A stretch of DNA of 64,000 nt, taken from positions 10,116 through 74,115 of IMG/VR virus record IMGVR_UViG_3300046779_001955; one strand, written 5' to 3'. The DNA is from a virus. Lineage: Duplodnaviria > Heunggongvirae > Uroviricota > Caudoviricetes. The position numbers and the translations under genes were made by a program. A model generated the notes under the pieces. It made no database searches. It had not been told where the DNA came from and saw nothing but the letters and a program-made list of their open reading frames with translations. The number at the start of each line of letters is the position of its first letter. Position 1 is the first letter of the stretch. This document shows positions 438 through 36,249 of the stretch, one piece after another.

Positions 438-466
438 ATTATAGAGTATGTTAGAATCTAGGTCAA
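438..466 (-). promoter_or_regulatory. sigma70-like promoter (TTGACC-17nt-TATAAT on minus strand)
   Basis: revcomp reads TTGACC tagattctaacatactc TATAAT; -10 at 438-443, -35 at 461-466. Confidence 0.6.
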
Positions 467-470
467 TGAA

Positions 471-491
471 AAAAGGCGCCGAAGCGCCTTG
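471..491 (-). terminator. rho-independent terminator, GGCGC-UUCG-GCGCC hairpin plus T6
   Basis: minus strand GGCGCTTCGGCGCCTTTTTT directly after stop of 511..777; UUCG tetraloop. Confidence 0.75.
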
Positions 492-510
492 TTGCCTCAC
501 ACGCGATTGA

Positions 511-777
511 TTAGGCAAGTCCCAATGCAATGGCTTTGTAACCAGCAGCAATCAAGCGACGGCTTGGCTTGCCCATGACATACTCGGTTACTTCAACTCC
601 ATTTGCGGCTTTGCGCTTGTCAGTGTACACACAGAAGCCGTGATTGCGAATACGGCTAATTTCAGCTGCTAGGTTGCCGATGCCCATTTTCTTGGCACGT
701 GAAGCAGAGATTGCCTCGCCGCTACGTAGAACTTGGAACACTTTGTAAGTTTTGGTTTCTTCGTTGATGAGTTTCAC
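511..777 (-). CDS. hypothetical protein (GTG start)
   Basis: 88-aa ORF; SD AAAGGTAA 6 nt upstream of GTG; followed by terminator. Confidence 0.5.
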   Translation of the reverse strand: MKLINEETKTYKVFQVLRSGEAISASRAKKMGIGNLAAEISRIRNHGFCVYTDKRKAANGVEVTEYVMGKPSRRLIAAGYKAIALGLA

Positions 778-866
778 AGTTATTACCTTTCAAAAAATTG
801 TGCTGTTTTTGCAGCTTCAATGATTATAATAGCCATGTGTTAACAAAGCAACAATTTAGGCAAAAC

Positions 867-1235
867 TTATGCAACAAGTTTGCCGGAAATTTCTTCCACG
901 TGGCGACATTTGCTGCGGTATTTAAAACCCGGGCACGAACATACCAATTGCTGTCCTACCATCTCCACTGTGTAGGAATTTCCTTTGCTGCCTGCCACAG
1001 TCCAGATTGATGACGATTGTTTGGGTTTCTCCTTGGGTATGACATAGTTCCACTGATTTTTGACTGCAACAAATCGGCGACGCCGTGCGTCAAATCGGAT
1101 TGGTGTTTTGAATTCTCGGACTGTATTGGTGCCTTGAACCACGTAGGCATACATTTTGTCTTTGCTGTCATTGAGGAGATAGATATGGTTAGGAGTTGCT
1201 GTGACCCACTCAGTAGTTTCTTGAAAGAAATTCAT
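867..1235 (-). CDS. SWIM zinc-finger domain protein
   Basis: CxC-x9-CxH motif (CSCPGFKYRSKCRH); start chosen at internal ATG 1235 forming ATGA overlap with upstream gene. Confidence 0.55.
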   Translation of the reverse strand: MNFFQETTEWVTATPNHIYLLNDSKDKMYAYVVQGTNTVREFKTPIRFDARRRRFVAVKNQWNYVIPKEKPKQSSSIWTVAGSKGNSYTVEMVGQQLVCSCPGFKYRSKCRHVEEISGKLVA

Positions 1236-1420
1236 GATGCCCTTGCAGCCATGCCGGCAAAAGTAATAACGTAATACACGCCCAACAAACCACAGATAAG
1301 GGCAAAGAACCATTGGTACCAAGCCGGTTTTGTGCCTTCGGCTTGATTAATAAGGATAGTGCAGGCAAACATACCCGACATCCAAATCAAACAATACATT
1401 ACTACAGCAAAGATAATCAT
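1232..1420 (-). CDS. small integral membrane protein
   Basis: 62 aa, two hydrophobic segments; promoter at 1449-1477 upstream. Confidence 0.5.
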   Translation of the reverse strand: MIIFAVVMYCLIWMSGMFACTILINQAEGTKPAWYQWFFALICGLLGVYYVITFAGMAARAS

Positions 1421-1448
1421 AGCAAATCCAAGTTGCCTAAGTTTTAAT

Positions 1449-1477
1449 ATTATAGCAAAGGTTGGTTAATTGGTCAA
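1449..1477 (-). promoter_or_regulatory. sigma70-like promoter TTGACC-17-TATAAT
   Basis: revcomp TTGACCaattaaccaacctttgcTATAAT; shares TTGACCAAT extension with other copies. Confidence 0.6.
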
Positions 1478-1675
1478 CCAACTGCAAACCTGCGTGTCTT
1501 GCAAATGTTGCAATTATTGCAATACCTAATTTGATAATATACTCTGTAGTTCCAGATATTTCGTACATGCGAGTTTTCGGGCCCGAGCCATTTGTCCCAT
1601 TGGTGGACACCCAAGGCACAACGCCAATTGTCTCCGAGTGTGGGTAAGTTTTGCAGTATCCGCCACATATTGCGT

Positions 1676-2005
1676 TTAGAGCTGTTCATAATCCGGTGTT
1701 GATAAAATTCGTGCCACAAGATTCTTTTGCCATGCTTCAAACGCTTCGTTCTTGGTTAACCAGGAATTTACAACTTCATAGCTACCCCAACTGCCGCGTG
1801 GTGCATTGAATTCTACCCACTGTATGACGTGTGCTAGTTCAGGTCGATTCCAACCATCGGCTCTAGCAGCAGCACCGTACAGGTCATTGGCCAGGACCGC
1901 TGTGGCAAAGCTACCCGGAGGAAGAGCATGATCCCAATATCGCCTAAATGCTTCTTCAAGGGTTTTGTTTCGGAGATCCCTCATCTCGTCTTTGCGTTGA
2001 CTCAT
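1676..2005 (-). CDS. hypothetical protein
   Basis: 109-aa ORF, no recognised motif. Confidence 0.5.
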   Translation of the reverse strand: MSQRKDEMRDLRNKTLEEAFRRYWDHALPPGSFATAVLANDLYGAAARADGWNRPELAHVIQWVEFNAPRGSWGSYEVVNSWLTKNEAFEAWQKNLVARILSTPDYEQL

Positions 2006-2128
2006 TTTGTTTCTCCACGGGTTGAACTATCACTGTTGCCGGAGGCTCGGGCCAAACTTTTTCCTTGATGGCATTGGCACCGATCCATCCCCAGGCACTA
2101 AAAAATCCCCATACAATCATATCTAATA

Positions 2129-2395
2129 TCATTCCCACTCCTCAGGTACAGTATAGTAATCCCACTTTTGTCCGCCTATCTTTTCCCATGCGTCCCACTT
2201 TTTTATTTCATCTTTGCAATTCTTGGGCATAGCAATGCTACCAACTACTGCACTGCAATGTCCGCAGCGATATGCTATACCTGAATTTTCATCGTAATAT
2301 GCAATACCACCGCAAGGCAGCTTCATCAAGGAATACCGGTCCACTAACTCTTGCTTGTATCCCGCACCACCAGGTGCCCAATCAAATTTACTCAT
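2129..2395 (-). CDS. hypothetical Cys-containing small protein
   Basis: 88 aa; CGG...CGHC cysteine pairs. Confidence 0.4.
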   Translation of the reverse strand: MSKFDWAPGGAGYKQELVDRYSLMKLPCGGIAYYDENSGIAYRCGHCSAVVGSIAMPKNCKDEIKKWDAWEKIGGQKWDYYTVPEEWE

Positions 2396-2396
2396 G

Positions 2397-2621
2397 TTAA
2401 TCCAGTGCCACAGACTTCATTGACTTCTTGCCGATCCAATGTTCATAAGTTACGCAAGTTGCACGTTCTTTGACACCAATCGGACTGGGTTCTCGTTGGT
2501 TAACAATTTTTCGTTGGAATACACAAGTCTTTCGATCTTGTACCACTTCGTGTCGTTTATCAATGAAATCACCTGCTGGTGAATACATTGCAATAATCAA
2601 TACCCAAGCGCCGGAATTCAT
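2397..2621 (-). CDS. hypothetical protein
   Basis: 74-aa ORF abutting previous gene. Confidence 0.4.
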   Translation of the reverse strand: MNSGAWVLIIAMYSPAGDFIDKRHEVVQDRKTCVFQRKIVNQREPSPIGVKERATCVTYEHWIGKKSMKSVALD

Positions 2622-2657
2622 GGAAATCTCCTAATTTAGGCTATGATTATACAATGA

Positions 2658-3719
2658 TTAGAATTTTTGATCAAGTGGTTTTGGCCGACGTTGGTTGCCA
2701 AATGCATTGATATAGTGTATGAGCTTTTGGTAAGATCCTGGTTTAGGAGATTTCCCAATTAAGTCAAGATATGATTCCAGTCCTTGGTATTGACTAGTGT
2801 CAAGATTTAGATTAGGGCCATCCCAACTCATTAAGCTCATGTAATCAGGTTCAATAAGAGGTATTATGGTGTGGTTAACACCTTTGCCTTGAGCATACGC
2901 AACAACTTCTGGTAGATCTTGTATGTTTAAAATACTCAATGTAGTGTGTAGTTCAACATAGTTGGCACACATAATATACTGATCAATACTGCTAGTTACT
3001 TCGAGCCAGTTGGAATCATATCTAATCCAACTGGCTCGTTCTCCAACAGCATCAACACTGATGAACACATGTATTTCCTTCCATGCCTGTTTTAAAATTT
3101 CAAATAGTCGAATATTCTTTGTGCCATTAGTGGTAATTTCTAACTTGGTACGAGTGGAATATCCTTCGGTCAATAAAAAATCCACAAATTGTAACACCAA
3201 AGGATTGTAGGCCGGCTCACCACCTTGTATACAAATGGTAACATCGTCGTGGTAGTTATAACTTTTTAATATATTGTTTTTTAAGTTATCCCAATGTGAT
3301 TTGAACTCGGTATTGGGGTTGGAAAACGTCACATCCAATAGTCCTGCATGTTCTTTGTGTTTTTGGATTTTAGAACTGTAGTTTTCGTTACAAGTCCAAC
3401 AGGCCAAGTTACATGCACTTCCAAAGTTTATACTCCATTCTCTCGGATATGCTGGATTTACAATTGGATTGAGTTTGTTGATGCTGGTGCGCATACTAGC
3501 ACCGGTGCGTTCTTGTATAGCACAATTTTGGCATTCAGGTGGAAACTGCTCGTATTGAAATTGTTCTTTAAACTCATTGAACCGATGATTGGTGTTCCAC
3601 CAGTGATCAAAATCTTGATTGTCGCTGACAATCTCAGGATTAACAGCACAGCAATTTCTATACTGTCCATTGGGCAACACAAAGGCTCGAACAAAAGGCA
3701 TTACGCAAAAGGGTTTCAT
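2658..3719 (-). CDS. radical SAM enzyme with Cys-rich N-terminal extension
   Basis: CNLACWTC (CX3CX2C) core, GGEP SAM-binding motif; N-terminal CxxPF-x12-G-x4-CC ... CxxC resembling an auxiliary-cluster (SPASM/twitch-like) motif. Confidence 0.85.
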   Translation of the reverse strand: MKPFCVMPFVRAFVLPNGQYRNCCAVNPEIVSDNQDFDHWWNTNHRFNEFKEQFQYEQFPPECQNCAIQERTGASMRTSINKLNPIVNPAYPREWSINFGSACNLACWTCNENYSSKIQKHKEHAGLLDVTFSNPNTEFKSHWDNLKNNILKSYNYHDDVTICIQGGEPAYNPLVLQFVDFLLTEGYSTRTKLEITTNGTKNIRLFEILKQAWKEIHVFISVDAVGERASWIRYDSNWLEVTSSIDQYIMCANYVELHTTLSILNIQDLPEVVAYAQGKGVNHTIIPLIEPDYMSLMSWDGPNLNLDTSQYQGLESYLDLIGKSPKPGSYQKLIHYINAFGNQRRPKPLDQKF

Positions 3720-4867
3720 AGAAGTTTTGCCAGTGTGCTTAGATAATTTCCTGTGTTCTTTTGAGCACTTAATAAGTCAAGTAAATCAGGATTTTGTCTA
3801 GCAATAAGTTTTTTACTAATTGCCGAATTCAACATTTGATCAATTTGATCTTTCCATGGCAACATTAAAAATTGTTTTAGAATGTTGATATCTCTCAATG
3901 GCGTAAAGGTCAAGGTGTTGCCAAGATGCCAGTGTTGGTGATCATTAGCAGCACATTCTAAAATGTGTTTGCGTAATGCCATAATATCAGATACCGGATG
4001 ATCTACTTGGCTTTGATACTTTTTCTGATTGTCTTCAATCATAAAGTACTCCCGATGCAGATAATTTTGATTTTTCAGCAGCTGATTTATTGAAGTACCA
4101 TGATGCATTGCCAACAAGTTTCCCATCTCAGGATTGCGCAAGGTAAATTCGTCTCCAGGGCATCCACTTACCAAAACAGTGGGCTTGATCCAATGGTGCA
4201 TTTGTTTGTAAGCCCAGTGATTAGATACTATAGTGTGATGATTACATACCCAAAAACGATCAAATTCAAGGTGTTCAGCTAATACTACTTCGTGTGGTAT
4301 TTCTAGTTTTTGTAAGTAACCCAACATCAAAGTAGTGTCAATACCACCACTCAGAAATATTTTTACTGGAAGATTATTGTAACTAAAAAAGTAATCAAAT
4401 TTTTCTGTTAGTATCTCATCAACATATTCAATCACCTCATCAACAGTTCTCTCTTGGGTTGGTACCTCAGTGATAACGTCAACACCGTCAGTTTTGAATG
4501 TAAGATCCTTGTTTAAAGTCAGTAAACTATCGGCAAAAATCTTTCGACTGAGTGGACAAAGATTTGTTACACCAAAGTTAGGATCATACCACAGTGGAAA
4601 ACTTCGGTACAAACTATGACGAACTTGAGCAGTTTCGTCAGATAAAATTATAATACAGTAGTTTCCACTTCGTGTAACATTGTTGTCAACAATATTGTAA
4701 ATTTCTAGATCAAGATCACCGTGATCAAGATACCCTTTGTAAGCTATAGTTTCTCGATTATGCTCAAGTATATTCCAACCTTGATCCATGTCAAGATGCC
4801 AACCGCGATGGTAATGTCCGTTGACACTAAAATTTAACTTTGGTGATCTGCTAATTGAAAAAAACAT
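3716..4867 (-). CDS. asparagine synthetase-like PP-loop ATP pyrophosphatase (amide/lactam synthetase-like), no N-terminal Cys nucleophile
   Basis: SGGIDTT PP-loop motif mid-protein (~res 172) as in AsnB C-domain; N-domain lacks Cys2; 4-nt overlap with radical SAM gene. Confidence 0.7.
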   Translation of the reverse strand: MFFSISRSPKLNFSVNGHYHRGWHLDMDQGWNILEHNRETIAYKGYLDHGDLDLEIYNIVDNNVTRSGNYCIIILSDETAQVRHSLYRSFPLWYDPNFGVTNLCPLSRKIFADSLLTLNKDLTFKTDGVDVITEVPTQERTVDEVIEYVDEILTEKFDYFFSYNNLPVKIFLSGGIDTTLMLGYLQKLEIPHEVVLAEHLEFDRFWVCNHHTIVSNHWAYKQMHHWIKPTVLVSGCPGDEFTLRNPEMGNLLAMHHGTSINQLLKNQNYLHREYFMIEDNQKKYQSQVDHPVSDIMALRKHILECAANDHQHWHLGNTLTFTPLRDINILKQFLMLPWKDQIDQMLNSAISKKLIARQNPDLLDLLSAQKNTGNYLSTLAKLL

Positions 4868-7611: not shown

Positions 7612-7627
7612 GTAATCTCCGTGAAAA

Positions 7628-7666
7628 AGCCCAAGTACATTATAACATGTAACTTGGGCTTTGCAA
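7628..7666 (-). promoter_or_regulatory. hairpin (8-bp stem, 16-nt loop) plus T-run overlapping a TTGCAA-16-TATAAT promoter
   Basis: minus strand GCCCAAGT...ACTTGGGC TTTTT after lipoprotein gene; loop carries TATAAT; upstream of clpP2-like. Confidence 0.4.
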
Positions 7667-7679
7667 CTAGATTTGGTTA

Positions 7680-8273
7680 TTATTCAGCTGCGCGATTGGC
7701 GTTGGCATCCAATTCTTTGGTGACATCAGCAGCACGAATTTCGGTGGCTTTACGAGCACGAATTCCATCTTTACGTGCTTGTAATTTATTAGCATCGCCC
7801 ATGGGCAAAGCCACCAAAACATAACTACGGAAACGAGTACCCTCGGCAATGGTTCGAGTGTCTACGATCTCAACACCAGTTACATCAACCTGTGGACACA
7901 TTGAACGAATTGCAGTTTCACTGAGTTCGCTGCCACCGCTTTCATTGTCCATCATAAAGACTTTACTTTGCTGATCAACCTTGCCGCCTGCTGACATACA
8001 AATTTTGCCCATTGCCATGAGTTTGGCTTTGGTACGAGCCATCTCCATGTCACGACTTACTGAAGTGCCGTTTGCATAAACTGCACTGTCTGAACTAGGT
8101 ACTTTCTCCATCCATGCCGGAGCCTTGTCAATAGCACGTTCAGCATACTTAACCTGGCGCTCGCGTTCAGCATCAGCACGTTTTTCAAACTTGTCATTGG
8201 TTGTACTACAAGCTGACAAAGTTGCGGCAACTGCTGCAACAAAAACCAATCGATTCAACATTTTATACCTCAT
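7680..8273 (-). CDS. lipoprotein (LPP20-like?)
   Basis: signal peptide with lipobox LSAC; 197 aa. Confidence 0.7.
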   Translation of the reverse strand: MRYKMLNRLVFVAAVAATLSACSTTNDKFEKRADAERERQVKYAERAIDKAPAWMEKVPSSDSAVYANGTSVSRDMEMARTKAKLMAMGKICMSAGGKVDQQSKVFMMDNESGGSELSETAIRSMCPQVDVTGVEIVDTRTIAEGTRFRSYVLVALPMGDANKLQARKDGIRARKATEIRAADVTKELDANANRAAE

Positions 8274-8395
8274 TATTTAGAAGAAATCCAATCGCCAACA
8301 CGACCTAAGTCTTTGCCAGCACCACTAATTGTACCACCTATTGTGCCACAGGCTGCTAGGCTTGTAACTAATAGGGCCAAAACTACAATACGCAT
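8273..8395 (-). CDS. small entericidin-like lipoprotein (40 aa), absent from ORF track
   Basis: MRIVVLALLVTSLAACGTIGGTISGAGKDLGRVGDWISSK; lipobox LAAC; G-x-G-x-D-x-G-R/N pattern like EcnA/B; TAATG overlap with downstream gene. Confidence 0.55.
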   Translation of the reverse strand: MRIVVLALLVTSLAACGTIGGTISGAGKDLGRVGDWISSK

Positions 8396-8419
8396 AAGAC
8401 CTCCATTGTACACGATAAA

Positions 8420-8986
8420 TTAAAAACGGTCAACCACTACCCATTCATTGGCATTGAGTTCGCATACAACACCTTGATATTGGCGCAGATGATCTCGATC
8501 CCAAGCTGGTTCCAGGAACCAACGACATTGCACACCGTTGTGCCAAAAACGATCAGGATAATTTGGATGGGGTCTAAATTGACTAGACTTACCAATCATA
8601 CCCGGCGATGTTTTTTTAATCATGTCAGCATCGGGATTGTCTGAGCATATCATTACTGAATCAGTAACAATTTGTTTTTTGCTCACACGATCGCGTACAT
8701 CGCGTTCGGCTTGCTGCACAGCCTGCGCACACATTTCGGTGCTGGGACGATTGCCATCCCATGTAACTTCACCGTGAGCCGGATGCCACTCGTTATTGAT
8801 TCGAGCACGAAACTCCACTGTACATTTCTTGCCACCGTTGACATCAGGTACTACCGCACGTCTCAAGTCGGCTCGTTCTTGGATGGTTACCTGTGTTCGA
8901 CTCACTGTTTTATCTTGCAAAACACAGTCAGCAGCACTGGCAGAAAGTGCAACCACACTCAGCAATGTTAGATATTTTACGGACAT
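8420..8986 (-). CDS. secreted/periplasmic protein
   Basis: signal peptide (ALSASAADC); 188 aa; several Cys. Confidence 0.6.
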   Translation of the reverse strand: MSVKYLTLLSVVALSASAADCVLQDKTVSRTQVTIQERADLRRAVVPDVNGGKKCTVEFRARINNEWHPAHGEVTWDGNRPSTEMCAQAVQQAERDVRDRVSKKQIVTDSVMICSDNPDADMIKKTSPGMIGKSSQFRPHPNYPDRFWHNGVQCRWFLEPAWDRDHLRQYQGVVCELNANEWVVVDRF

Positions 8987-9324: not shown

Positions 9325-9499
9325 ATTGCTCCTTGGATTCTAGTTTGTATTGAGCTTCATTTGCATAGTGTTCAAGGTATCGTGCCAACTGTTGTTGATT
9401 CAGACAATCATTTGGAACCAATGCAGTGTCCAAAGGCGGAGAAATACTTGGTGTCACGCAGCCTGCCAACGGCAGGCAGGCAATTAAAAGCCATCGCAT
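9260..9499 (-). CDS. lipoprotein
   Basis: internal start MRWLLIACLPLAGC (lipobox LAGC); ORF-track N-terminal extension to 9601 doubtful. Confidence 0.5.
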   Translation of the reverse strand: MRWLLIACLPLAGCVTPSISPPLDTALVPNDCLNQQQLARYLEHYANEAQYKLESKEQYEQRKGQYKARMWHLRYNCNR

Positions 9500-9675
9500 T
9501 CTTGACCTCGCTTGTTGTGTTTGTCCTGACGTTGATATGCACGACGGTTCCGTTCTACGTGCCCACGGAACGGGGTATTGGCCCCATAGAGCTCTACACA
9601 ACGACGTCGTTGCCGCGGTACTCTAAACTGTATATTTTGTGTTTTCATAATTGAAAATCCCAGTTAATGTACACA

Positions 9676-9704
9676 ATTATACACAAACTGGGATTATTGG
9701 TCAA
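9676..9704 (-). promoter_or_regulatory. sigma70-like promoter TTGACC-17-TATAAT
   Basis: revcomp TTGACCaataatcccagtttgtgTATAAT upstream of lipoprotein cluster. Confidence 0.6.
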
Positions 9705-10663: not shown

Positions 10664-11674
10664 TTCTACAACTTGGTCTCGGGCAAGATTTTTGCCCTTG
10701 GCCTCACACTGTATATCCCACTGCTCTGCAAAGGTCAGAGCATATTCATTAACAGCCGAGTTCCAATAAAAGTCCGAGTGTGCTCGTAGCTTGCTCCGAG
10801 TGAAGCCTCTTGAAAGCAGTTGCTCAAGATTGGGTCTAGTACAGGGATCGTGATCCACCAAAAGATCTTCACGACTAACGCTGTAGTGAAGCACAGGGCG
10901 AACACCGCGCCAACTGTCCAAAACACGCTGCGCACGATCATCATCAGGAGTGATGTATTCTCCTGTTTTGACCCAGTGATGATGTATATCCAATGTAATT
11001 GGAACACGATGAATAACACCCAAAACAACATCAAGTCCATTTGTAATTTCATCATTCTCTATAGCGATTAGATTTCTAGCTTCGGGGGTCAATCTATCCA
11101 AAGTTTTTAGAAATTTGTCAGGCCCGCCTTTGCCTGACAAGTGTATGTTAATTTTAAATCCATGATCATGCCACTCAGCACCATAGCCCATCCATCGTGC
11201 AAGATCAACATGGTACTCAAACTCATCAATGCTGCGTTCAACAATATCATCGCTTTCACTTGCAAGAACACAGAACTGACCGGGATGGAAACTCAGACGA
11301 ACACCTAGTCTACGAGCAGCTTCGCCAACAGGTGCAAAAATTCGAGCACAATGATTTTGCACATCACTTTGCTGCCACCATTGTTGCCAGTCCTTTTCAG
11401 TGTAACCGTTGAGCATTTCTGAACCAAGACGAACCATGCGCTGAGTCTCAGGCAATGTGCCCACATGCTCTACCAGTGCTAATGCTGCTGCGGCATTATG
11501 GTTCATGATTTCAAACTGTCGTTGCTCGGCTTCGTCGCGATGCTCACGCAACCAGCGCATAGTAGTTGAACGTCCGTTCATGTGACGACTAGCCGACGTG
11601 GGTTTACGGCCAGCTACTTCTTCGGGATGATCTAGCCATTTGCAGCAAAAACCAATTTTAGTAGTGATAGGCAT
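10652..11674 (-). CDS. uvsE: UV damage endonuclease UvdE/UvsE
   Basis: SFHPGQF, NIHLSG, IENDE, DIHHHW blocks match the UvsE TIM-barrel family. Confidence 0.85.
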   Translation of the reverse strand: MPITTKIGFCCKWLDHPEEVAGRKPTSASRHMNGRSTTMRWLREHRDEAEQRQFEIMNHNAAAALALVEHVGTLPETQRMVRLGSEMLNGYTEKDWQQWWQQSDVQNHCARIFAPVGEAARRLGVRLSFHPGQFCVLASESDDIVERSIDEFEYHVDLARWMGYGAEWHDHGFKINIHLSGKGGPDKFLKTLDRLTPEARNLIAIENDEITNGLDVVLGVIHRVPITLDIHHHWVKTGEYITPDDDRAQRVLDSWRGVRPVLHYSVSREDLLVDHDPCTRPNLEQLLSRGFTRSKLRAHSDFYWNSAVNEYALTFAEQWDIQCEAKGKNLARDQVVELLR

Positions 11675-12098: not shown

Positions 12099-12128
12099 AT
12101 AGTCAAAAAAAAATCAACAACTTAGCAA

Positions 12129-12157
12129 GTATAAGTTATTGATTTTTTAAGGCCAAC
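12129..12157 (-). promoter_or_regulatory. candidate promoter TTGGCC-17-TATACT
   Basis: revcomp TTGGCCttaaaaaatcaataactTATACT. Confidence 0.45.
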
Positions 12158-17281: not shown

Positions 17282-17283
17282 AG

Positions 17284-26158: not shown

Positions 26159-26176
26159 AAAAGCGAACCGTTATGT

Positions 26177-26299
26177 CTAAGAGATCAACAATATACCAAT
26201 ATATCCTGCTAGCGTGACTGGAATTCCAATGTACCAGGCAATGCGCTTACCACAGGTAGTGACCAGCAATCTGACAGGTATAACATCTACCCTTGCCAT
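26177..26299 (-). CDS. possible 40-aa peptide with C-terminal TM helix (or part of an ncRNA)
   Basis: MARVDVIPVRLLVTTCGKRIAWYIGIPVTLAGYIGILLIS; lies ~225 nt downstream of a consensus promoter; weak SD. Confidence 0.25.
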   Translation of the reverse strand: MARVDVIPVRLLVTTCGKRIAWYIGIPVTLAGYIGILLIS

Positions 26300-26532
26300 T
26301 GCACGATCCAGTCTGCACCGAGCCTACTCTGTGCCCTTGATTCGTACTACGAATATAACACAGTTTTGTCAAAGAGTATCTGGATACATTTATTCCTCTA
26401 TTGACTGCAGACAATGCTCAACCTACTGTAGGACTAAATTTTTCAACTGTATCAGCCACGCTGGGGTGTTACCGTGTTTGCATATCGCAGACTCCCCGCA
26501 TCAGTTCCTACTGAACGCCCTATGCACTTATA

Positions 26533-26561
26533 ATTATACCAAGTTTTTGGTAAACTGTCAA
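26533..26561 (-). promoter_or_regulatory. consensus sigma70 promoter TTGACA-17-TATAAT
   Basis: revcomp TTGACAgtttaccaaaaacttggTATAAT; fires into 370-nt ORF-poor region. Confidence 0.65.
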
Positions 26562-29584: not shown

Positions 29585-29744
29585 CGTCTTCACCGCGACA
29601 TTGATGTCTAAGTGCCAGCTTTTCTTTCAACCATATCTTGCCGCAATCCGCACAACGCCAGGCGGTACCGTCGCGACTAAAAGGATAATCTCTAATAGGA
29701 TGTGATCCTTGTTTGGTTGTGATTTTTTCTATCTTGGGTTCCAT
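29571..29744 (-). CDS. 57-aa C2HC/C2H2-like zinc-finger protein (not in ORF track)
   Basis: WRCADCGKIWLKEKLALRHQC; TAATG overlap with DNA ligase stop. Confidence 0.35.
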   Translation of the reverse strand: MEPKIEKITTKQGSHPIRDYPFSRDGTAWRCADCGKIWLKEKLALRHQCRGEDDVLL

Positions 29745-31138
29745 TACAATTTTTCTCCAACATCAAACCCACGGAAGCGTACAAATCTAGGGAATCGCAG
29801 TGAGTACGATCCGTCTTGGTTCTGTGTTACTGCATCGGCTTCTACTTCAACAATCTGACCCACGATATTATTTCCATTGACATGATGATTCCAAAACTCA
29901 TCTCTATCACTATCGCTGAGGCCACTACCAACATTGACGGTAATGTGTCGCCCGTTATCGGATCCCTCGCAAACGAGAGCTCCAAGTCGTCCCAGATTTC
30001 TTCCAGTGCCTTCTTCAAGATTGACAACCTCCAAGTCTACTGTGATTGTGGGTTTCCATTTCATCCAATTACTGCTGCGTTTACATTCGTAGTGTGCTTG
30101 AAGGTTCTTAATCATAATACCTTCAAAACCTTCTGCCACAGCGTCTTGTGCAAATTTTTGCATAGTAGATTTGCCAACTGAAGTGTCAAGATCTACTTCA
30201 ATACCTGGCATTATACGAACGCTGGGATTAGAATCTAACAAAGGACGCAGCAATTCAAGTTTTTCACTGCGACGTTCTTGTGATAATTGAATCTGTGATC
30301 CTCGTTTAAATGCATCAAGTGACACCCAGTCAAACACATAAAACTTTGAATCATTGGCATTGGCATCACGTTTACGACGTGCTTGCTTCATTAGGGTTTG
30401 AAAACTTTCGCCAACAATTTCACCGTCAAGAACTATTGGTGCACCATTGGCCAGTAATCGTTTGATTTCTAGTGCGTTACCAATGAGTTGATCTTCTATA
30501 ACACTGAAGTTTTCAAAGACCTTTCCGTTGCGACTGTATAGAGTAACTGCACCGTTATTGTCAATTACAGCCAACACACGAACACCATCAAGTTTGCATT
30601 CGATTCTGGCACGACCAGTCATCTTGTTGGGATGATCTGCAGAGTCTGTGGCCAATTGACAAGTAAACACTGGTATAGCCCAGTCGCTTTTACCTAGTAT
30701 CTTGTTCAGTGTTTTTTCACTAATGCCGCAGCGCAGACCTTTGATCAATACACGACGACACATGTCATTCCACTCTTGACTATCAAATTGGCGACTGCAT
30801 TCTTCCACCATTTGGCGCATGTGATTACCAGTGACTGAACGAGTGCGTAGTGCCTCGCATAGTGCCCAGAACTGTGGCCACGGATTGGGCTGACCTACAA
30901 TATTTTCAGTTTCAGGAACCTGTTTGATATTGTAAGTGTAAAAAGGATTGTATGCAAGATAGCAATTAAACAAAAAGATTTGAGCACTAGAGCTACCTAG
31001 TTTTGCAGCCATAAAGGCTTTTTCAATAACCCGTTCTTTGTGTAAGCGGCTATCTGAGCTTTCAAGATCATGGATCCAATCAGCTGCCACCGGTACTCCG
31101 TTAAAAGAAGTGTCTTTGGGATTGAACACTTGTGCCAT
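29744..31138 (-). CDS. ATP-dependent DNA ligase
   Basis: KxDG adenylation motif (ECKLDGVRV), OB-domain C-terminal region. Confidence 0.9.
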   Translation of the reverse strand: MAQVFNPKDTSFNGVPVAADWIHDLESSDSRLHKERVIEKAFMAAKLGSSSAQIFLFNCYLAYNPFYTYNIKQVPETENIVGQPNPWPQFWALCEALRTRSVTGNHMRQMVEECSRQFDSQEWNDMCRRVLIKGLRCGISEKTLNKILGKSDWAIPVFTCQLATDSADHPNKMTGRARIECKLDGVRVLAVIDNNGAVTLYSRNGKVFENFSVIEDQLIGNALEIKRLLANGAPIVLDGEIVGESFQTLMKQARRKRDANANDSKFYVFDWVSLDAFKRGSQIQLSQERRSEKLELLRPLLDSNPSVRIMPGIEVDLDTSVGKSTMQKFAQDAVAEGFEGIMIKNLQAHYECKRSSNWMKWKPTITVDLEVVNLEEGTGRNLGRLGALVCEGSDNGRHITVNVGSGLSDSDRDEFWNHHVNGNNIVGQIVEVEADAVTQNQDGSYSLRFPRFVRFRGFDVGEKL

Positions 31139-31172: not shown

Positions 31173-31201
31173 ATTATAAAGAATTATTCTTATTTGGTCA
31201 A
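31173..31201 (-). promoter_or_regulatory. sigma70-like promoter TTGACC-17-TATAAT upstream of ligase
   Basis: revcomp TTGACCaaataagaataattcttTATAAT; AAGGA SD follows. Confidence 0.6.
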
Positions 31202-31576: not shown

Positions 31577-31586
31577 GGTGTTCTCC

Positions 31587-32399
31587 TTATCGAGTGTTAA
31601 CGATTGGTGTTGCGTTACCGATGATCATAGTACACTTGGAGTTCGCAGCACATTCTTCCATAGCCAATGCTTTCTTGTACTCGATCAACTGGTTGGTAAT
31701 ACTTTGTGTCAAGATGTTGTTGCGACGTGCAGTACCTTCGGCCTCGGCAACTACACGAGCAGCTTCGGCCTTGGCCAATTCAAGCTCGGCTTTCTTGGCT
31801 TCGATCTGTTTCTGCATCTGCACGTTGGCAAGAATACTGTTTTCAATTGCAGGATCTGTTATAACCTGACGCATTACAACACGAGTCACAGTAAACACAC
31901 CAGGATCCGATTTATCCAACTCAGCCTGCACATTTTTCTGTACAGCAGTAGCAACTTCATCACGGTGTTGGTGAATAGTTAGCGAATCGTGTTTGGCAAC
32001 TTCTTCATAAATTGCAGTGCGACTCAAATTCTCAACTAGTTGATATCCTGCGTACCAGTATCCATGTTGGCTACGTGCATTTTGTGCAGCGTACTTGGTG
32101 TAGAGTTCAGGAACTTTGGCGCCGTTTACTCGGTAGTAAACAGTCAAATCCATTTCTTTCAGCGTCAAGTTGTCCTTGGCCTTGGGTGTCATGTTGTCAA
32201 GATTTACAGCAGATTCTTTGGCAGTAAACTCTCGCACACTAGACAGCACCGCAAGATACATGCCGGGTTCAACAGGTTCAGCGTTGACTTTACCAAATGT
32301 AGTACGAACACCTACGTTGCCTTGGTCAATAACACCCATACAACCACCTAATATCAACGTAGTACCAATGACCGCTGTTGTAATTAAACCTCGATACAT
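31587..32399 (-). CDS. SPFH/band-7 (HflC/prohibitin-like) lipoprotein
   Basis: lipobox LGGC; SPFH core; C-terminal AEAE/AKAEAARVVAEAEG helix. Confidence 0.8.
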   Translation of the reverse strand: MYRGLITTAVIGTTLILGGCMGVIDQGNVGVRTTFGKVNAEPVEPGMYLAVLSSVREFTAKESAVNLDNMTPKAKDNLTLKEMDLTVYYRVNGAKVPELYTKYAAQNARSQHGYWYAGYQLVENLSRTAIYEEVAKHDSLTIHQHRDEVATAVQKNVQAELDKSDPGVFTVTRVVMRQVITDPAIENSILANVQMQKQIEAKKAELELAKAEAARVVAEAEGTARRNNILTQSITNQLIEYKKALAMEECAANSKCTMIIGNATPIVNTR

Positions 32400-32400
32400 T

Positions 32401-32577: not shown

Positions 32578-32792
32578 TTCTTTTTGTCCTTGGGAAATTT
32601 AGTACACCAGATACAGCGAACACTGGGCTTGGCATAAAAGTAACTGCCGGTGTCGGGGAATTTACCTTTGCAGCCGGCACAGATATAAGTTTGCATAGCC
32701 GGACCCCAAGGACCATCCACAGCCGCTTGCTGCCTGGGCCCAAGGTCTCCAGACACAGGCTTTGCTTTAATTTTCGTATTCATAAGGATCAA
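32574..32792 (-). CDS. zinc-ribbon protein
   Basis: CAGCKGKF ... CIWCTKF. Confidence 0.45.
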   Translation of the reverse strand: MILMNTKIKAKPVSGDLGPRQQAAVDGPWGPAMQTYICAGCKGKFPDTGSYFYAKPSVRCIWCTKFPKDKKK

Positions 32793-32921
32793 TCAAGTCG
32801 GCTTCAAGCACAGCATCTTCGTAAGTGGCAGCACCAAGTTGAATTGTGGTGCCATCGGCATAGCAGGCTAGATATGAATTGTACAGCGAATCGTATTCGA
32901 TGCCGGTAAAAAAGTTACCCA

Positions 32922-33113
32922 TTAGAGTCCTCGTAAATGGTTGATGACAATACGTGCTTCTTCAAAGTCGCTGCGAGCCAAGGCTTCTTCGATCATGTGT
33001 GCATGCAGTTCATGCAACTCTTCTAGCATGGCATTGACTATTTGGCGCTTGCGATTCAAGCTTTGGAATTCCACTCGCCGGTAACCACTAAATTGACGAC
33101 TATAATCATTCAC
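32922..33113 (-). CDS. hypothetical protein (GTG start, AAGGAG SD)
   Basis: first gene after promoter 33143-33171. Confidence 0.5.
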   Translation of the reverse strand: MNDYSRQFSGYRRVEFQSLNRKRQIVNAMLEELHELHAHMIEEALARSDFEEARIVINHLRGL

Positions 33114-33142
33114 AGCAGCTCCTTGTTATTCACTATACCCAT

Positions 33143-33171
33143 ATTATAGCAAAAAGGAATTTATTGGTCAA
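33143..33171 (-). promoter_or_regulatory. sigma70-like promoter inside duplicated ~55-nt block (copy 1)
   Basis: revcomp TTGACCaataaattcctttttgcTATAATatgggtatag...aaggagc. Confidence 0.65.
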
Positions 33172-33177
33172 TGGTTG

Positions 33178-33408
33178 CTATTTTTGCAACTTTTCCCAGA
33201 CCAACTCACGTTCGTGAACGTTTGCTACTAACTTGATGTAGCCATTGGAGAAGCAAGTGAGTATTATGTCTCGAATGTTCTGTGGACATGTAGGATCAAA
33301 TTCTATGCCGGCACGGGGAGCAGCCTGGAATCCGTCGCTGATAAAGTAATCCGGATCACCTTGGCGAATTTGTCGAATTTGACGAGTCGGAAGATTATCA
33401 AAATTCAT
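33178..33408 (-). CDS. hypothetical protein
   Basis: 76-aa ORF in overlapping early-gene-like string. Confidence 0.45.
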   Translation of the reverse strand: MNFDNLPTRQIRQIRQGDPDYFISDGFQAAPRAGIEFDPTCPQNIRDIILTCFSNGYIKLVANVHERELVWEKLQK

Positions 33409-33599
33409 TCAAAGTACTCCACGGCATGAGGAATATCGCGCCAGCGTCCCCACCAAGTGCGATACTGCAATACATTGGCAGTGTTGCTGCTGCCTAGTTC
33501 TTGTTTGGCTGTCATCATGCTCACAGAATATTTTTCACTGTATTCTTTGACCATGGCAGCAGTGATGATTCGACGTCGCTGTAACCAACGGAGTTTCAT
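33405..33599 (-). CDS. hypothetical protein
   Basis: 64 aa; ATGA overlap. Confidence 0.45.
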   Translation of the reverse strand: MKLRWLQRRRIITAAMVKEYSEKYSVSMMTAKQELGSSNTANVLQYRTWWGRWRDIPHAVEYFE

Positions 33600-33862
33600 T
33601 ATTTTTTAAGTAGTTTAAAAATTTTATCGGCTGTGACTATTTCATGCAACTGCTTGACTTCTTTGACTCGGACTTCAAATTCCACAATCTCCCAGTCATC
33701 AAGTTGACGGCGATAATAATCCGAAGACGAGTTAAGATGTTGTGTAATTATTGCGCGAAGCTTTCCCAGCGTATCGTAGACCTTGCCAGAATTGTTCCAA
33801 GTGCCGTCGGACTTGCGAAACAGTTCAGGATTCTTACGATTACGTATTTTATAGTAGTTCAT
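33599..33862 (-). CDS. hypothetical protein
   Basis: 87 aa. Confidence 0.45.
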   Translation of the reverse strand: MNYYKIRNRKNPELFRKSDGTWNNSGKVYDTLGKLRAIITQHLNSSSDYYRRQLDDWEIVEFEVRVKEVKQLHEIVTADKIFKLLKK

Positions 33863-34131
33863 ACTTTTTTACGATTTAAAATATCCCAGGCCATGCCATG
33901 CCACCGAGTAAAAACCACTCGCCAAAATCCTGGAAGACTTCCAGCGGCGCAACTCATTTCCCACCATTCGCCGTCGGTACCTTGATACACTACGCGGGCA
34001 TCAATACCGTAGATACCTTTTACTTTTTTAAGTACTTGCTCGGCATCGTTGGTCACACTTGTAGCACCATCTAGATCTTGTAAAAAGATGATGCCATCTT
34101 TGACTCCAACTATTTCCCATTGGCTACGCAT
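33859..34131 (-). CDS. hypothetical protein
   Basis: 90 aa; ATGA overlap. Confidence 0.45.
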   Translation of the reverse strand: MRSQWEIVGVKDGIIFLQDLDGATSVTNDAEQVLKKVKGIYGIDARVVYQGTDGEWWEMSCAAGSLPGFWRVVFTRWHGMAWDILNRKKV

Positions 34132-34136
34132 AATTT

Positions 34137-34529
34137 TTAGCAGTTGACTGCTTCCTGTTTGACAGCAAAGCGATACAGTGCATCACATTCTCGAATAAAG
34201 TGTTCACCTACGTCCATGCTTACATAATCTACACCTTGCATACCTTGCTCGGTATATGAGACATCAAGTATAGCGTCGGGGCTAAATCCAAACGTCTTTT
34301 CCATACAGGTAAGGAATGTGTGTTTCCATCCCATGTCCGAATAGATCAATCCGTCTTGGTCTACGTCCCAATCTCGTGTATCAAAGTAAACACGAAGTTC
34401 ACCAAACTCGTTGTTGCTACTTACTGACGCAAGTTCAACACGATTGACTCGGACGGTTTTGTGCGCTTCAGACCAATATCCAGTTCCTGCAGTTTTAGTA
34501 ACAAAATTAACTTGTCGATCAAATATCAT
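34137..34529 (-). CDS. hypothetical protein
   Basis: 130 aa. Confidence 0.5.
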   Translation of the reverse strand: MIFDRQVNFVTKTAGTGYWSEAHKTVRVNRVELASVSSNNEFGELRVYFDTRDWDVDQDGLIYSDMGWKHTFLTCMEKTFGFSPDAILDVSYTEQGMQGVDYVSMDVGEHFIRECDALYRFAVKQEAVNC

Positions 34530-34702
34530 TCTGTTGCCTCGTTTATAATATCTCTAAACTCTTGCATAGTAAATTCCCGACCTCGCCACCACGCCACAGC
34601 TGGGTCTAATACTTTGACCTTGAGATCCAAGGTAACCTCTACCCACAGGTCACCGTTTTGATGCGGTGCATTCTTAATGCAATATACGTTGCCTTCTTTC
34701 AT
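34526..34702 (-). CDS. 58-aa hypothetical protein (not in ORF track)
   Basis: MKEGNVYCIKNAPHQNGDLWVEV...; ATGA overlaps at both ends. Confidence 0.4.
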   Translation of the reverse strand: MKEGNVYCIKNAPHQNGDLWVEVTLDLKVKVLDPAVAWWRGREFTMQEFRDIINEATE

Positions 34703-34848
34703 GCTGCCTCTAGTTCGCGGATTTGTGCTGCCAGTTTCTGGCGCTGTTCGTCAATGCGAGCATTAGATTCTTCGTCGAGCTCGCCGGCAATCTCATCAAG
34801 ATGAATCAGCTCGTTGTACAATACATCAAGTAAAGTTTGGTCAGCCAT
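34699..34848 (-). CDS. small acidic protein
   Basis: start at MADQTLLD. Confidence 0.4.
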   Translation of the reverse strand: MADQTLLDVLYNELIHLDEIAGELDEESNARIDEQRQKLAAQIRELEAA

Positions 34849-34852
34849 AAAA

Positions 34853-35122
34853 TTACTCCTTGTCCATAATGTATGTAAACAGAACCCACTTGGCACGGTT
34901 AAGCAATTGGCGCTGGTCTTCGATGGTGTTGAAATCAGGCTGTTCGTATGCCATCATTTCTTGTGCATCCGACATCATGGACGCCACAATCATTGCCGGG
35001 CCACTTAGTTTAAAAGTAATGCTAGACTCTATTGCTTCGCGCATGCCGTCTTCGGTTACACCATACATTGAAACTTCACGCTTTTGCTGTTCAGTTAGTG
35101 ATTCGTAAATTGCAGTGGCCAT
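34853..35122 (-). CDS. hypothetical protein
   Basis: AAGGAG SD; 89 aa. Confidence 0.5.
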   Translation of the reverse strand: MATAIYESLTEQQKREVSMYGVTEDGMREAIESSITFKLSGPAMIVASMMSDAQEMMAYEQPDFNTIEDQRQLLNRAKWVLFTYIMDKE

Positions 35123-35251
35123 TTTGTTATCTCCTTAAACTTCTTCCCAACGCCAACCTTTGAAATAAGCCCGCATTGTGAGCAGGGCTGCAATAAAAGC
35201 AACGGCACTTAAAACAGTCATTTGTTGCTCCTTGTTATCTACTATACCCAT

Positions 35252-35280
35252 ATTATAGCAAACAGGGATTTATTGGCCAA
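35252..35280 (-). promoter_or_regulatory. sigma70-like promoter inside duplicated ~55-nt block (copy 2)
   Basis: revcomp TTGGCCaataaatccctgtttgcTATAATatgggtatag...aaggagc. Confidence 0.6.
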
Positions 35281-35297
35281 CCAATTTCTAATGTTGC

Positions 35298-35591
35298 TTA
35301 TTCAACAACAGTCAGCATACTTGCAGGAACACGCCATAGTCTATTATGAGGCGCGAGTTCTGCAACAGTTACATACTTTATTGCAACTTTTTCTACAGTA
35401 CAAATCATTTCACGACCAAGGCGGTTATTGTAAAATTTAACAGTTGCACCTTTTGCAACACTGCGTTTCACAGCCTTTGCCAGTTGAGTGCGACGAAATT
35501 TTACAGCAGAGGCAATACTTTCTAGTTGCTCATTTGTAAACGAGCCAAACATGATTGCTGAATTAACATCCTGAATGGAAAGTTGCGACAT
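35298..35591 (-). CDS. hypothetical protein
   Basis: AGGAG SD; 97 aa. Confidence 0.5.
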   Translation of the reverse strand: MSQLSIQDVNSAIMFGSFTNEQLESIASAVKFRRTQLAKAVKRSVAKGATVKFYNNRLGREMICTVEKVAIKYVTVAELAPHNRLWRVPASMLTVVE

Positions 35592-35621
35592 TGCTAACTC
35601 CTAATAAGTTACAGTATCGTT

Positions 35622-35650
35622 ATTATAAGGAAATTGGGATTAATGGTCAA
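35622..35650 (-). promoter_or_regulatory. sigma70-like promoter TTGACC-17-TATAAT
   Basis: revcomp TTGACCattaatcccaatttcctTATAAT. Confidence 0.6.
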
Positions 35651-36018
35651 CCAAACTGTGTGTTTTGGAATCTTGTAGCTGCTGCTTTTTGCAAGGGTTT
35701 TTTAGATGGTGTTCCGGTGCCTAATTCATCGTGAGTATAAAATCCATATAGAAATACAGTTCTATTGACGATACGATAAACAATGCTGACATCAGGTGTA
35801 AGGTGTGCATGACGAAGTCCCGGAACTTGTCCTAAAGGTGCATCACCTACAAAAGCTCGGTCAGTGGGATTCCATTGTTGATTGGGGTCTTGTCTTTTAA
35901 CATGCATGAACTGTCGAAGTTTAGCACGAACGCCAGGGTACGGAAGAATTCGATGGTTATAGGTACGGCGGAAATCGTTACCGCGAAGAAATGCTGTTTG
36001 CGGCGTCGTATGCTTCAT
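35647..36018 (-). CDS. possible RelE/YafQ-fold toxin-like protein
   Basis: C-terminal HAHLTPDVSIVYRIVNRTVFLYGFYTHDEL resembles RelE/YafQ core; overlaps upstream acidic ORF. Confidence 0.35.
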   Translation of the reverse strand: MKHTTPQTAFLRGNDFRRTYNHRILPYPGVRAKLRQFMHVKRQDPNQQWNPTDRAFVGDAPLGQVPGLRHAHLTPDVSIVYRIVNRTVFLYGFYTHDELGTGTPSKKPLQKAAATRFQNTQFG

Positions 36019-36190
36019 CCCAAGAATCCATTTCTGCAATTAGTTCGTCGGCTGTCTGGGGTTCGCTCCAGCTATCCGATTCATGTGCTTCCATAATACG
36101 CACAAGATCTTCGGTGAGAAAACCAGTGTTATTATTTTCAGCAATCTCTTCACGCAGGTGCCGGCGTCGAGTAACTTCGGTAATTTTCAT
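35978..36190 (-). CDS. small acidic protein (possible antitoxin-like partner)
   Basis: 70 aa, strongly acidic C-terminus, overlaps downstream gene. Confidence 0.4.
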   Translation of the reverse strand: MKITEVTRRRHLREEIAENNNTGFLTEDLVRIMEAHESDSWSEPQTADELIAEMDSWDEAYDAANSISSR

Positions 36191-36220
36191 AGCAATATTT
36201 AGTTAGATCAAAAAGTCTGC

Positions 36221-36249
36221 ACTATAGCAGTATCTTAGTAATTGGTCAA
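36221..36249 (-). promoter_or_regulatory. sigma70-like promoter TTGACC-17-TATAGT
   Basis: revcomp TTGACCaattactaagatactgcTATAGT. Confidence 0.55.

Follow-up and report, generated by a model that had tools for sequence, protein, structure and literature searches.

An extended sigma70-type promoter cassette recurs across a clade of uncultured large phages

T4-type phages carry a lineage-specific extended early-promoter consensus upstream of novel ORFs (Nolan et al. 2006, PMC1524935), as well as regulatory cassettes termed promoter-early stem-loops (PeSL) (Arbiol et al. 2010, PMC2839356; Comeau et al. 2014, PMC4122927). The jumbo phage PA5oct relies on host RNA polymerase, and TTGAC and TATAATA boxes mark 32 promoters at its mapped start sites (Lood et al. 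2020, PMC7318152). We analysed a 64,000-nt stretch of a Caudoviricetes virus genome, hereafter the window, and compared its promoter-like sites with these systems.

A first-pass annotation had listed ten minus-strand sites as a family of near-consensus sigma70-type promoters. Allowing at most one mismatch, we found 11 matches to TTGACC-N17-TATAAT in the window, all on the minus strand, against an expectation of 0.47 and a maximum of 3 in 100 dinucleotide shuffles. The position-weight-matrix scan that the annotation had proposed, run on the window, gave 12 minus-strand versus 0 plus-strand matches at >=10 bits, and no cassette-type match beyond 36249. Thus, the family is real and strand-specific. 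All ten listed sites are present, but the coordinates given for the weak one (12129/12152) are off by one base, its hexamers being 12128-12133 and 12151-12156, and the list omits two members, 2646-2674 (TTGATC) and 8405-8433 (TACAAT). Every listed site agrees with TTGACA/TATAAT at 10 to 12 of the 12 hexamer positions. All 12 sites have a spacer of exactly 17 nt, A(A/T)T(A/T)A stands immediately 3' of the -35 at 7/12, and a start codon lies 24-34 nt past the -10 at 10/12, mostly with a Shine-Dalgarno sequence (SD) before it. As expected of sigma70-type promoters, near-consensus hexamers and a 17-nt spacer are found upstream of, and co-oriented with, genes.

The sites, all on the minus strand, differ in detail. 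TTGACC-N17-TATAAT at 438..466 lacks the AATAAT extension and precedes an SD (GGAG), an ATG at 405 and ORF 52-405; an intrinsic terminator hairpin (473-490) lies directly upstream. The cassette-type site at 1449..1477 (TTGACC-AATTAA..TGC-TATAAT), preceded by GG and with a small hairpin spanning its -35, is predicted to drive a 62-aa hydrophobic ORF (1232-1420), and the TTGATC-N17-TATAAT variant at 2646..2674 is followed by an SD (AGGAG) and ORF 2397-2621. At 8405..8433, TTGACC-N17-TACAAT is a doubtful member: the ATG of a 40-aa lipoprotein-like ORF (8273-8395) lies a mere 9 nt past the -10, so that the site may be a nearly leaderless promoter or no promoter at all. The cassette-type promoter at 9676-9704 (TTGACC-AATAATCCC..TATAAT; ORF 9484-9648) sits in a strong hairpin at 9656-9695 (-20.5 kcal/mol, z = -5.7) followed by TTTT, and the element 9656..9704 has the appearance of a PeSL-like composite promoter-terminator. 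The weak site at 12128-12156 (TTGGCC-N17-TATACT) falls within an A6-stem-T9 bidirectional terminator hairpin at 12108-12148 (z = -4.5); the element 12108..12156 is in the main a terminator, and its promoter role is questionable.

The site at 26533..26561 matches the generic consensus perfectly (TTGACA-N17(TGG)-TATAAT) and lacks the clade extension described below; its orthologue in the related locus L002 reads TTGGCA-N17-TATAAT. No SD or ORF occurs within ~370 nt downstream. The idea of a structured RNA in these ~370 nt was dropped, since the region had no Rfam match (E <= 1), folded with a z-score of +0.21 and had no nucleotide-level counterpart in relatives; nor did scans of the whole window for tRNAs and Rfam families detect an RNA gene. 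The promoter at 31173..31201 precedes an ATP-dependent DNA ligase gene (29744-31138). A near-consensus promoter-leader-SD cassette at 33114..33175 (promoter 33143-33171) heads a 63-aa ORFan (32922-33113), and another at 35222..35285 (promoter 35252-35280), with TTGGCC as its -35, is predicted to drive a 28-aa hydrophobic ORF (35135-35221) and then ORF 34853-35122. The cassette-type site at 35622..35650 (GG-TTGACC-ATTAATCCCAAT..TATAAT) is followed by an SD (AGGAG) and a 97-aa ORF (35298-35591) conserved in 17 fetched loci. TTGACC-AATTAC..TGC-TATAGT at 36221..36249 (ORF 35978-36190) marks the border between a conserved block, 36256-42768, that includes RNR and the variable small-ORF region. Pfam and PHROG searches returned no function for the genes driven by the window cassettes. 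Some features sit less easily with the host-read early promoters favored below: the extended -10 motif TGn is found at only 5/12 window sites, the sites ending at 8433 and 12156 are doubtful, and the one at 26561 is geneless for ~370 nt.

In their layout, the window sites resemble T4-type early promoters and PeSL cassettes, and they appear to form a regulatory module of known kind. As in PeSL, repeated near-consensus sigma70 promoters end 3' in an SD and start codon, lie for the most part ahead of small ORFans where gene content varies between relatives, follow a consensus that varies by lineage and, in some copies (466, 9704 and 12156), are fused to terminator hairpins. In contrast, the stem-loop integral to PeSL is found at 3-4/12 window sites and not in the family consensus; eight window sites have no hairpin, and ahead of its -35 the consensus shows a T-rich stretch and no stem-loop. 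The window family also conserves the spacer, start-site box and leader, recombination between its cassettes is no more than hinted at, and the phage is not T4-type, having a DnaE-type polymerase and PA5oct and Atu_ph07 as nearest cultured relatives. The likeness to T4 early promoters lies in an early class that would depend on host sigma70, in conserved bases past the hexamers, in numerous copies upstream of novel ORFs and in a distinct late class marked by a short TATAAATA/CTAAATA-type motif. Unlike in T4, the -35 is TTGACC rather than GTTTAC, the extension occupies the spacer (AAWAAT-TCCC) and positions -37/-36 (GG), and an A-rich UP-like element at -40..-44 is lacking, positions -38..-46 being T-rich or uninformative. 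A T4 middle (MotA-dependent) promoter was rejected, since a canonical -35 is present and the TGCTT box of (a/t)(a/t)TGCTT(t/c)A is missing at -30. The CTAAATA motif precedes structural-type genes and has conserved counterparts in L024 and L033; as a window-wide word it is not above chance (12 vs 9 expected), and it is its placement and orthologous conservation that are suggestive of a second, late-type promoter class.

Among cultured phages, PA5oct is closest by DnaB (47% aa), and the nearest cultured relatives of the clade are jumbo phages. PA5oct has in common with the window the A directly after the -10 and extended runs of small, co-oriented early ORFs. However, its first 50 kb holds only 2-3 strict TTGAC-N16-18-TATAAT sites, and a scan of positions 1-50 kb detected none with the TTGACC-AATAAT-CCC extension or the conserved leader. 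Megablast of 7 kb against cultured phages gave no match, BLAST of a 67-nt consensus cassette against them gave only three chance-level matches, and a full-text literature search for TTGACC-type phage early promoters returned nothing relevant.

We next compared the window with uncultured relatives. From over 200 sites, spread across at least 120 IMG/VR contigs of which some reach 200-350 kb, we obtained the family consensus tGG-TTGACC-AATAAT-TCCC-AAtT-TGC-TATAAT-A-N4-CATA-(A-rich)-AAGGAGC-ATG. The AAT(A/T)AAT extension described earlier is thus one portion of a longer conserved sequence. At least 84 fetched loci have proteins in common with the window and therefore form with it one uncultured clade. 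The extended consensus is the same in a logo of 245 sites and in 129 and 145 sites picked on hexamers alone; GG at -37/-36, C at -30, AAWAAT at -29..-24 and CCC at -22..-20 are clade-specific, and the logo also shows TG at -15/-14, A at -6, CATA at -1..+3 and GGAG at about +15. The TG of the extended -10 is present at 74-91% of family sites. Conservation is strongest at exactly the positions that contact RNA polymerase, and the spacer carries 0.2-0.4 bit per position. CCC, TG, T-24 and the SD are far commoner at TTGACC than at TTGACA sites (p down to 1e-8), which argues that the cassette is inherited as a unit. In relatives, of 56 ORFs that begin close to a family promoter, 50 do so precisely 6 nt past the -10, which indicates leaderless mRNAs and independently supports the predicted transcription start. 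Together, the recurrence of the ~55-base cassette in at least 120 related viral contigs points to a clade-wide module rather than a local duplication, and the motif, earlier termed phage-specific, is not peculiar to this phage.

Orthologous promoters display the same pattern. In L001-L003, found independently of the motif, the ligase promoter keeps its position and retains TTGACCAATAAT; AATAAT is kept and the remaining spacer drifts. Relatives at 50% aa identity have TTGACA/TTGCAA-N17-TATAAT in the same place. More distant relatives and PA5oct show plain TTGACA-type promoters without the extension, so the extension is lineage-specific. The promoters at 36249 and 35280 both have orthologues in L002 (L002:6304 and L002:8294, respectively), the latter in the same position and with the same rare TTGGCC -35, and the small-ORF blocks between conserved anchor genes differ between the window and L002.

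The blocks 33114-33175 and 35222-35285 had been described as about 85% identical and taken as evidence that a whole expression cassette was recently duplicated. The identity was fairly stated: it is 80% over the full span and 91% (49/54) from -35 to SD. We rejected recent duplication in the form proposed. Similarity is limited to the ~54-57 nt that make up promoter, leader and SD, with no relationship between the flanks or between the downstream ORFs; the copy at 35280 has its orthologue in L002; and cassettes in L002 are 80-85% identical (43-46/54) to the window pair. With the hexamers excluded, identity is 69-72% for cassettes on other contigs versus 67% for the window pair. These results point to a constrained, possibly homogenised cassette. 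Within-genome cassette identity is 0.85-0.94, compared with 0.80-0.85 between genomes, a hint of recombination between cassettes. The slight excess for the pair (91% vs 80-85%) leaves room for gene conversion, and 49/54 within the genome against 43-46/54 between genomes lends thin support to homogenisation.

We consider it probable that the sites are early promoters of a large uncultured virulent-type phage, read by host RNA polymerase with its primary sigma. The dependence on host sigma70 that had been proposed is the most economical reading. We infer that host RNA polymerase carrying a primary (sigma70-family) sigma would read the cassettes immediately early. Each ~55-nt cassette would suffice for the expression of a single small gene or operon, comprising TTGACC as its -35, 17 nt of spacer, often the extended -10 motif TGn, TATAAT as its -10, a CATA box, a short A-rich leader of ~17-27 nt, AAGGAG(C) and a start codon. 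Transcription would start at the A of the conserved CATA box, 7 nt past the -10. The cassettes head small ORFan genes in the variable-content region and a few known genes, e.g. DNA ligase, with the lineage-specific extension moving with the rest of the cassette as one unit. Selection for strong, uniform early expression would maintain the cassette across the clade, and recombination or gene conversion among copies probably also keeps it uniform, as in T4-type PeSL. To our knowledge, GG at -37/-36 and the spacer AAWAAT-TCCC are not explained by known sigma70 contacts, which counts against this explanation, as does the chance that the phage encodes a sigma or RNA polymerase outside the window.

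The extension GG-TTGACC-AATAAT-TCCC might instead be an operator for a candidate phage regulator, repressor or sigma-appropriating factor that switches the early class, with host sigma70 as the basal reader. Its conservation even in sites picked on hexamers alone, the retention of AATAAT in orthologous ligase promoters despite spacer drift, its restriction to one lineage and the partial dyad GGTTGACC / TTGGTTGACCAA would all suit an operator. Yet the dyad is asymmetric (T at -38/-39 ~0.4 vs A at -29/-28 0.53-0.62), its upstream T's blend into the general T-rich tract, and spacer information is modest. The symmetric operator was rejected as the main explanation because its upstream half-site is poorly conserved. 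Moreover, no DNA-binding candidate is seen among the early proteins of the window, and Pfam and PHROG searches of its small early proteins gave no candidate phage factor. Coupling of the extension reaches as far as the SD and start-site box, a pattern better explained by a co-inherited cassette than by a protein site. We therefore regard an operator as unlikely. We hold equally doubtful the broader proposal that the ~55-nt cassette is a mobile or homogenising module of an uncultured jumbo-phage clade, in which GG-TTGACC-AATAAT-TCCC docks a candidate phage-encoded or virion-delivered factor coordinating early-class activation or shut-off.

Conservation spans the whole promoter, past the canonical hexamers, which would also be expected if a phage-encoded sigma70-family factor or a modified host polymerase read the extended bases and the unmodified host holoenzyme did not. 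Huge phages often encode sigma-like proteins, and the window covers only 64 kb of a genome probably >200 kb long. However, hexamers, 17-nt spacing and TGn are exactly the universal primary-sigma consensus, the same locus in relatives has plain TTGACA-N17-TATAAT, no sigma factor is seen among the annotated proteins of the 64-kb window, and the first-expressed genes cannot need a phage-made sigma unless it is injected; we judge this quite improbable. Least probable of all, at the margin of what we would entertain, are recombination, replication or packaging repeats, or small mobile-element remnants, that merely resemble the sigma70 consensus. Dispersed ~55-nt copies with signs of homogenisation that border variable gene blocks would fit such repeats, but not strict co-orientation with genes, a fixed SD/ATG distance, leaderless variants that begin exactly at the predicted +1, or best-conserved positions that are RNA polymerase contacts.

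Host-read early promoters, the reading we favor, bear on the host itself. A canonical primary sigma and a strong SD make a Bacteroidota host unlikely; one RefSeq MAG bins clade contigs in Bacteroidota. Matches to a 20-base pattern in a scan of a genome collection were rejected as host promoters, being mis-binned phage contigs (12 matches in one 'Haliscomenobacter' MAG) and unrelated singletons. The consensus provides a highly specific promoter model for an abundant uncultured large-phage clade (at least 120 IMG/VR contigs), one that can expose mis-binned phage contigs in MAGs and that marks early transcription units and the start codons of tiny ORFans, including leaderless ones. The cassettes are also candidate strong, compact expression parts. 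If the docking-site proposal were true, PeSL-type modular shuffling would reach beyond T4-type phages, and a new promoter-specificity determinant would be added to host sigma70. The picture of uniform early-promoter cassettes flanking variable ORFan blocks is widened from T4-type phages to another large-phage lineage.

The window holds 11 matches to TTGACC-N17-TATAAT with one mismatch allowed, all on the minus strand, compared with 0.47 expected and a maximum of 3 in 100 dinucleotide-preserving shuffles. The ten sites listed in the first-pass annotation are all present, the weak one at 12128-12156, one base from its original placing. A position-weight-matrix scan, which that annotation had suggested, was built from window sites and run on the window; it returned 12 minus-strand and no plus-strand matches at >=10 bits. 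Two family members lie beyond the original list, at 2646-2674 and 8405-8433. In a rough gene map of the window the minus strand carries about four fifths of the ORFs, so the sites point in the direction of transcription. The start codon lies 24-34 nt downstream of the -10 at 10 of the 12 sites, usually preceded by GGAG or AGGA. Past 36249, no cassette-type copy (promoter, leader, Shine-Dalgarno (SD) sequence and start codon) was found in the window, even with two mismatches.

The site at 26561 (sites are named by their upper minus-strand coordinate) is the sole perfect TTGACA-N17(TGG)-TATAAT promoter in the window. It is followed by ~370 nt (26160-26532, minus) without an SD-led or conserved ORF, and for this stretch we found no Rfam match, no excess of folding (z = 0.21) and no nucleotide conservation. 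An orthologous promoter in the related locus L002 is likewise followed by such a gap.

We scanned IMG/VR with the pattern TTGACCAATWAW-N11-TATAAT and found it on at least 120 stretches. Nearly all of the matches listed are accompanied, within a few hundred bases and on the same strand, by more copies that score highly, with densities among them of up to 11 per 10 kb. Proteins 40-89% identical to those of the window are encoded by 84 fetched loci, thus the loci bearing the family form one clade. Logos were drawn from 245 distinct sites, from sites picked on the two hexamers alone (125 and 129 sites), and from 145 'secondary' sites with all fetching patterns excluded, which biases against the extension (the clade-specific bases around and within the spacer). 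The consensus common to all three is tGG-TTGACC-AAWAAT-TCCC-AAtT-TGC-TATAAT-A-N4-CATA-(A-rich)-AAGGAGC-N5-7-ATG. If +1 is set at the A of CATA, both hexamers take up canonical positions and TG at -15/-14 forms an extended -10.

Secondary sites with TTGACC were compared with those with TTGACA by Fisher test. T at -24 occurs in 78% versus 39% (p = 7e-5), at least two C at -22..-20 in 62% versus 11% (p = 9e-8), TG at -15/-14 in 84% versus 32% (p = 3e-8), AT at +1/+2, the start-site box, in 62% versus 34% (p = 6e-3), and an SD in 71% versus 37% (p = 5e-4). Contacts with RNA polymerase alone would not tie a base at -30 to the ribosome-binding site, so the cassette behaves as an inherited unit.

The first-pass annotation had taken the copies at 33171 and 35280 for a recent duplication of a whole expression cassette. 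The two are 80% identical over the block as then delimited and 91% identical (49/54) from -35 to SD, where their likeness stops; neither the ORFs that follow (63 aa; 28 aa then 89 aa) nor the upstream flanks are related. Cassettes elsewhere are about as alike: with hexamers excluded, the 35280 copy is 72% identical to a consensus from other contigs alone and 69-72% identical to single cassettes elsewhere, closer than to the 33171 copy (67%). In L002 the homologue of ORF 34853-35122 is likewise preceded by a promoter whose -35 is the unusual TTGGCC, indicating that the 35280 promoter is older than the split between the window and L002. Cassettes of L002 are 80-85% identical to the window pair, although the adjoining proteins have diverged to 40-79% amino acid identity. 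These results speak against recent local duplication. Cassettes of one genome (identity 0.91 in the window and 0.85-0.94 in L002) are slightly more alike than cassettes of different genomes, a difference of a few positions only that would be compatible with gene conversion among copies.

The window and L002 are collinear over a series of anchor genes (RNR, 37188, 36256, 34853, 32922, 31202, ligase, 26571 and 24304), and the blocks of small ORFs between them differ. For example, L002 lacks the Band_7 gene (31587-32399) and the five ORFs of 33178-34852, and carries about 2 kb of unrelated ORFs past its 6304 promoter.

Loci L001-L007 were retrieved through their ligase proteins and not through the motif. 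In the three close relatives, at about 70% aa identity, the matching position upstream of the ligase gene carries TTGACCAATAAT-N11-TATACT, with AATAAT kept and the remaining spacer different. Among the four more distant ones (about 50% aa identity), L004, L005 and L007 carry TTGACA- or TTGCAA-N17-TATAAT at that position but lack the extension, and no such site was found upstream of the ligase gene in L006. The early region of jumbo phage PA5oct holds 2-3 strict sites only, and the extension was not found in it. A sigma70-type promoter at the ligase position is thus old, and the extension is specific to this clade.

It was also proposed in the first-pass annotation that the extension could bind a phage factor. 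Its lineage specificity and moderate conservation favor such a predicted site. Against it stand the asymmetry of the GG..CC dyad, the coupling of conservation to translation signals and the failure to find a candidate factor among the small early proteins of the window. The sites agree with the primary-sigma consensus in both hexamers, in the 17-nt spacing, in the TGn and in where they lie relative to genes, and recognition by the primary sigma would fit this.

Among relatives, 56 ORFs of >=40 aa have their ATG 5-8 nt past a family -10, at exactly 6 nt in 50. These ORFs (for example at L053:2450, L132:5755, L008:7198 and L010:4970) group into conserved protein families of about 110 aa (M..KK..RKKR.DRTHIVY), 77 aa (MKLEINEILQW) and 50 aa (MQPAAARYEKFKRKM). 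The 6-nt geometry is as expected of leaderless mRNAs and independently supports the predicted start site; the ORFs indicate that leaderless early genes are widespread in the clade. In the window, TTGATT-N17(TGC)-TATAAT at 61291-61319 (minus) overlaps the stop codon of the gene upstream and ends exactly 6 nt before the Toprim/primase ATG (61284), without an SD. In L067, TTGACT-N17(TGT)-TATACT (about 11040-11087) stands 9 nt before the orthologous primase ATG. The primase mRNA may thus be leaderless or nearly so. Several relatives (L130:669, L052 about 2112, L053:5679, L143:6303, L139:2072) carry a short hairpin, ATGTTG..CAACAT, directly 3' of a family promoter, followed by a T-run and then AAACTT..AGGCAAC. 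Such an element could act as an attenuator or 5' stabiliser, or could be an RNA of very small size; the window 1477 leader (1420-1448) keeps only its ATTAAAACTTAGGCAAC part.

The window encodes a class Ia ribonucleotide reductase, an ATP-dependent DNA ligase, a DnaB-type helicase, a DnaE-type Pol III alpha fragment, a Toprim primase, UvdE and a radical-SAM enzyme; for many small ORFs no Pfam or PHROG function was found. No cultured phage matches it at the nucleotide level. Its helicase shares 47% identity with the PA5oct protein and 45% with the Atu_ph07 protein, the closest relative of the polymerase lies in a 484-kb uncultured phage, and the exact ligase sequence recurs only on a 6-kb metagenomic contig. 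The window thus belongs to the genome of a large uncultured phage.

Scanning a genome collection for the motif gave mis-binned phage contigs only, among them 12 matches on 7 contigs of a 'Haliscomenobacter' MAG (NZ_JBBAKG01, 'Haliscomenobacter sp. EUL_031', a RefSeq MAG assigned to Bacteroidota). At least 7 contigs of this MAG, totalling about 460 kb, carry clade cassettes and genes (L132-L134, L139, L141, L143, L144, L147, L148), and these are almost certainly mis-binned phage. The same cassette is seen on small contigs from Opitutia and Aquiluna bins (L136, L130), and contigs with a single match in Methylococcaceae and Legionella bins (L145, L149) may be mis-binned as well. The SPFH/Band_7 gene (31587-32399, minus) lies among early ORFs, is absent at the syntenic L002 position and may be a recent, moron-like acquisition. 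Its nearest named cellular homologues are from Betaproteobacteria/Burkholderiaceae (46-49% identity), a weak hint of a betaproteobacterial host that would be consistent with strong SD use and a sigma70-type promoter.

The closest analogue is the promoter-early stem-loop (PeSL) cassettes of T4-type phages, which are situated in hyperplastic regions (PMC2839356, PMC4122927); window cassettes, too, stand amid gene blocks that differ between relatives. A terminator lies upstream of site 466, one hairpin spans the -10 of site 9704 (z = -5.7), and another spans site 12156 itself (z = -4.5). However, the defining stem-loop is present at some window sites only and is lacking from the family consensus, thus we liken the family to PeSLs without claiming membership. 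Separately, a strong terminator hairpin at 7626-7668 (minus; -20.4 kcal/mol, z = -5.0, then TTTTT) contains TATAAT within the loop, with TTGCAA lying 16 nt upstream, and forms a PeSL-type composite promoter-terminator outside the TTGACC family. PA5oct, the nearest cultured relative, uses host RNA polymerase, which reads its TTGAC/TATAATA promoters (PMC7318152). T4-like phages have an extended, lineage-specific early consensus ahead of novel ORFs (PMC1524935).

In the motif-free half of the window, CTAAATA occurs on the minus strand at 44836-44842, 48848-48854 and 51389-51395, 25-40 nt upstream of the SD-led genes 43198-44811 (tailspike-like), 48099-48824 and 50875-51348. L024 and L033 also have it, about 25 nt upstream of the tailspike homologue, where it is conserved, and it is identical to the late-promoter motif of Aeh1 (PMC1524935); over the window as a whole it is no more frequent than expected by chance. 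CTAAATA may be a second, late promoter class, and as a second motif it supports a temporal programme. The units headed by cassettes would be those that the phage must express first. The promoter family is real and well supported, and is neither a local duplication nor confined to this phage; spread across the clade, it adds a new member to a known class, the early sigma70-type promoter cassettes of phages.
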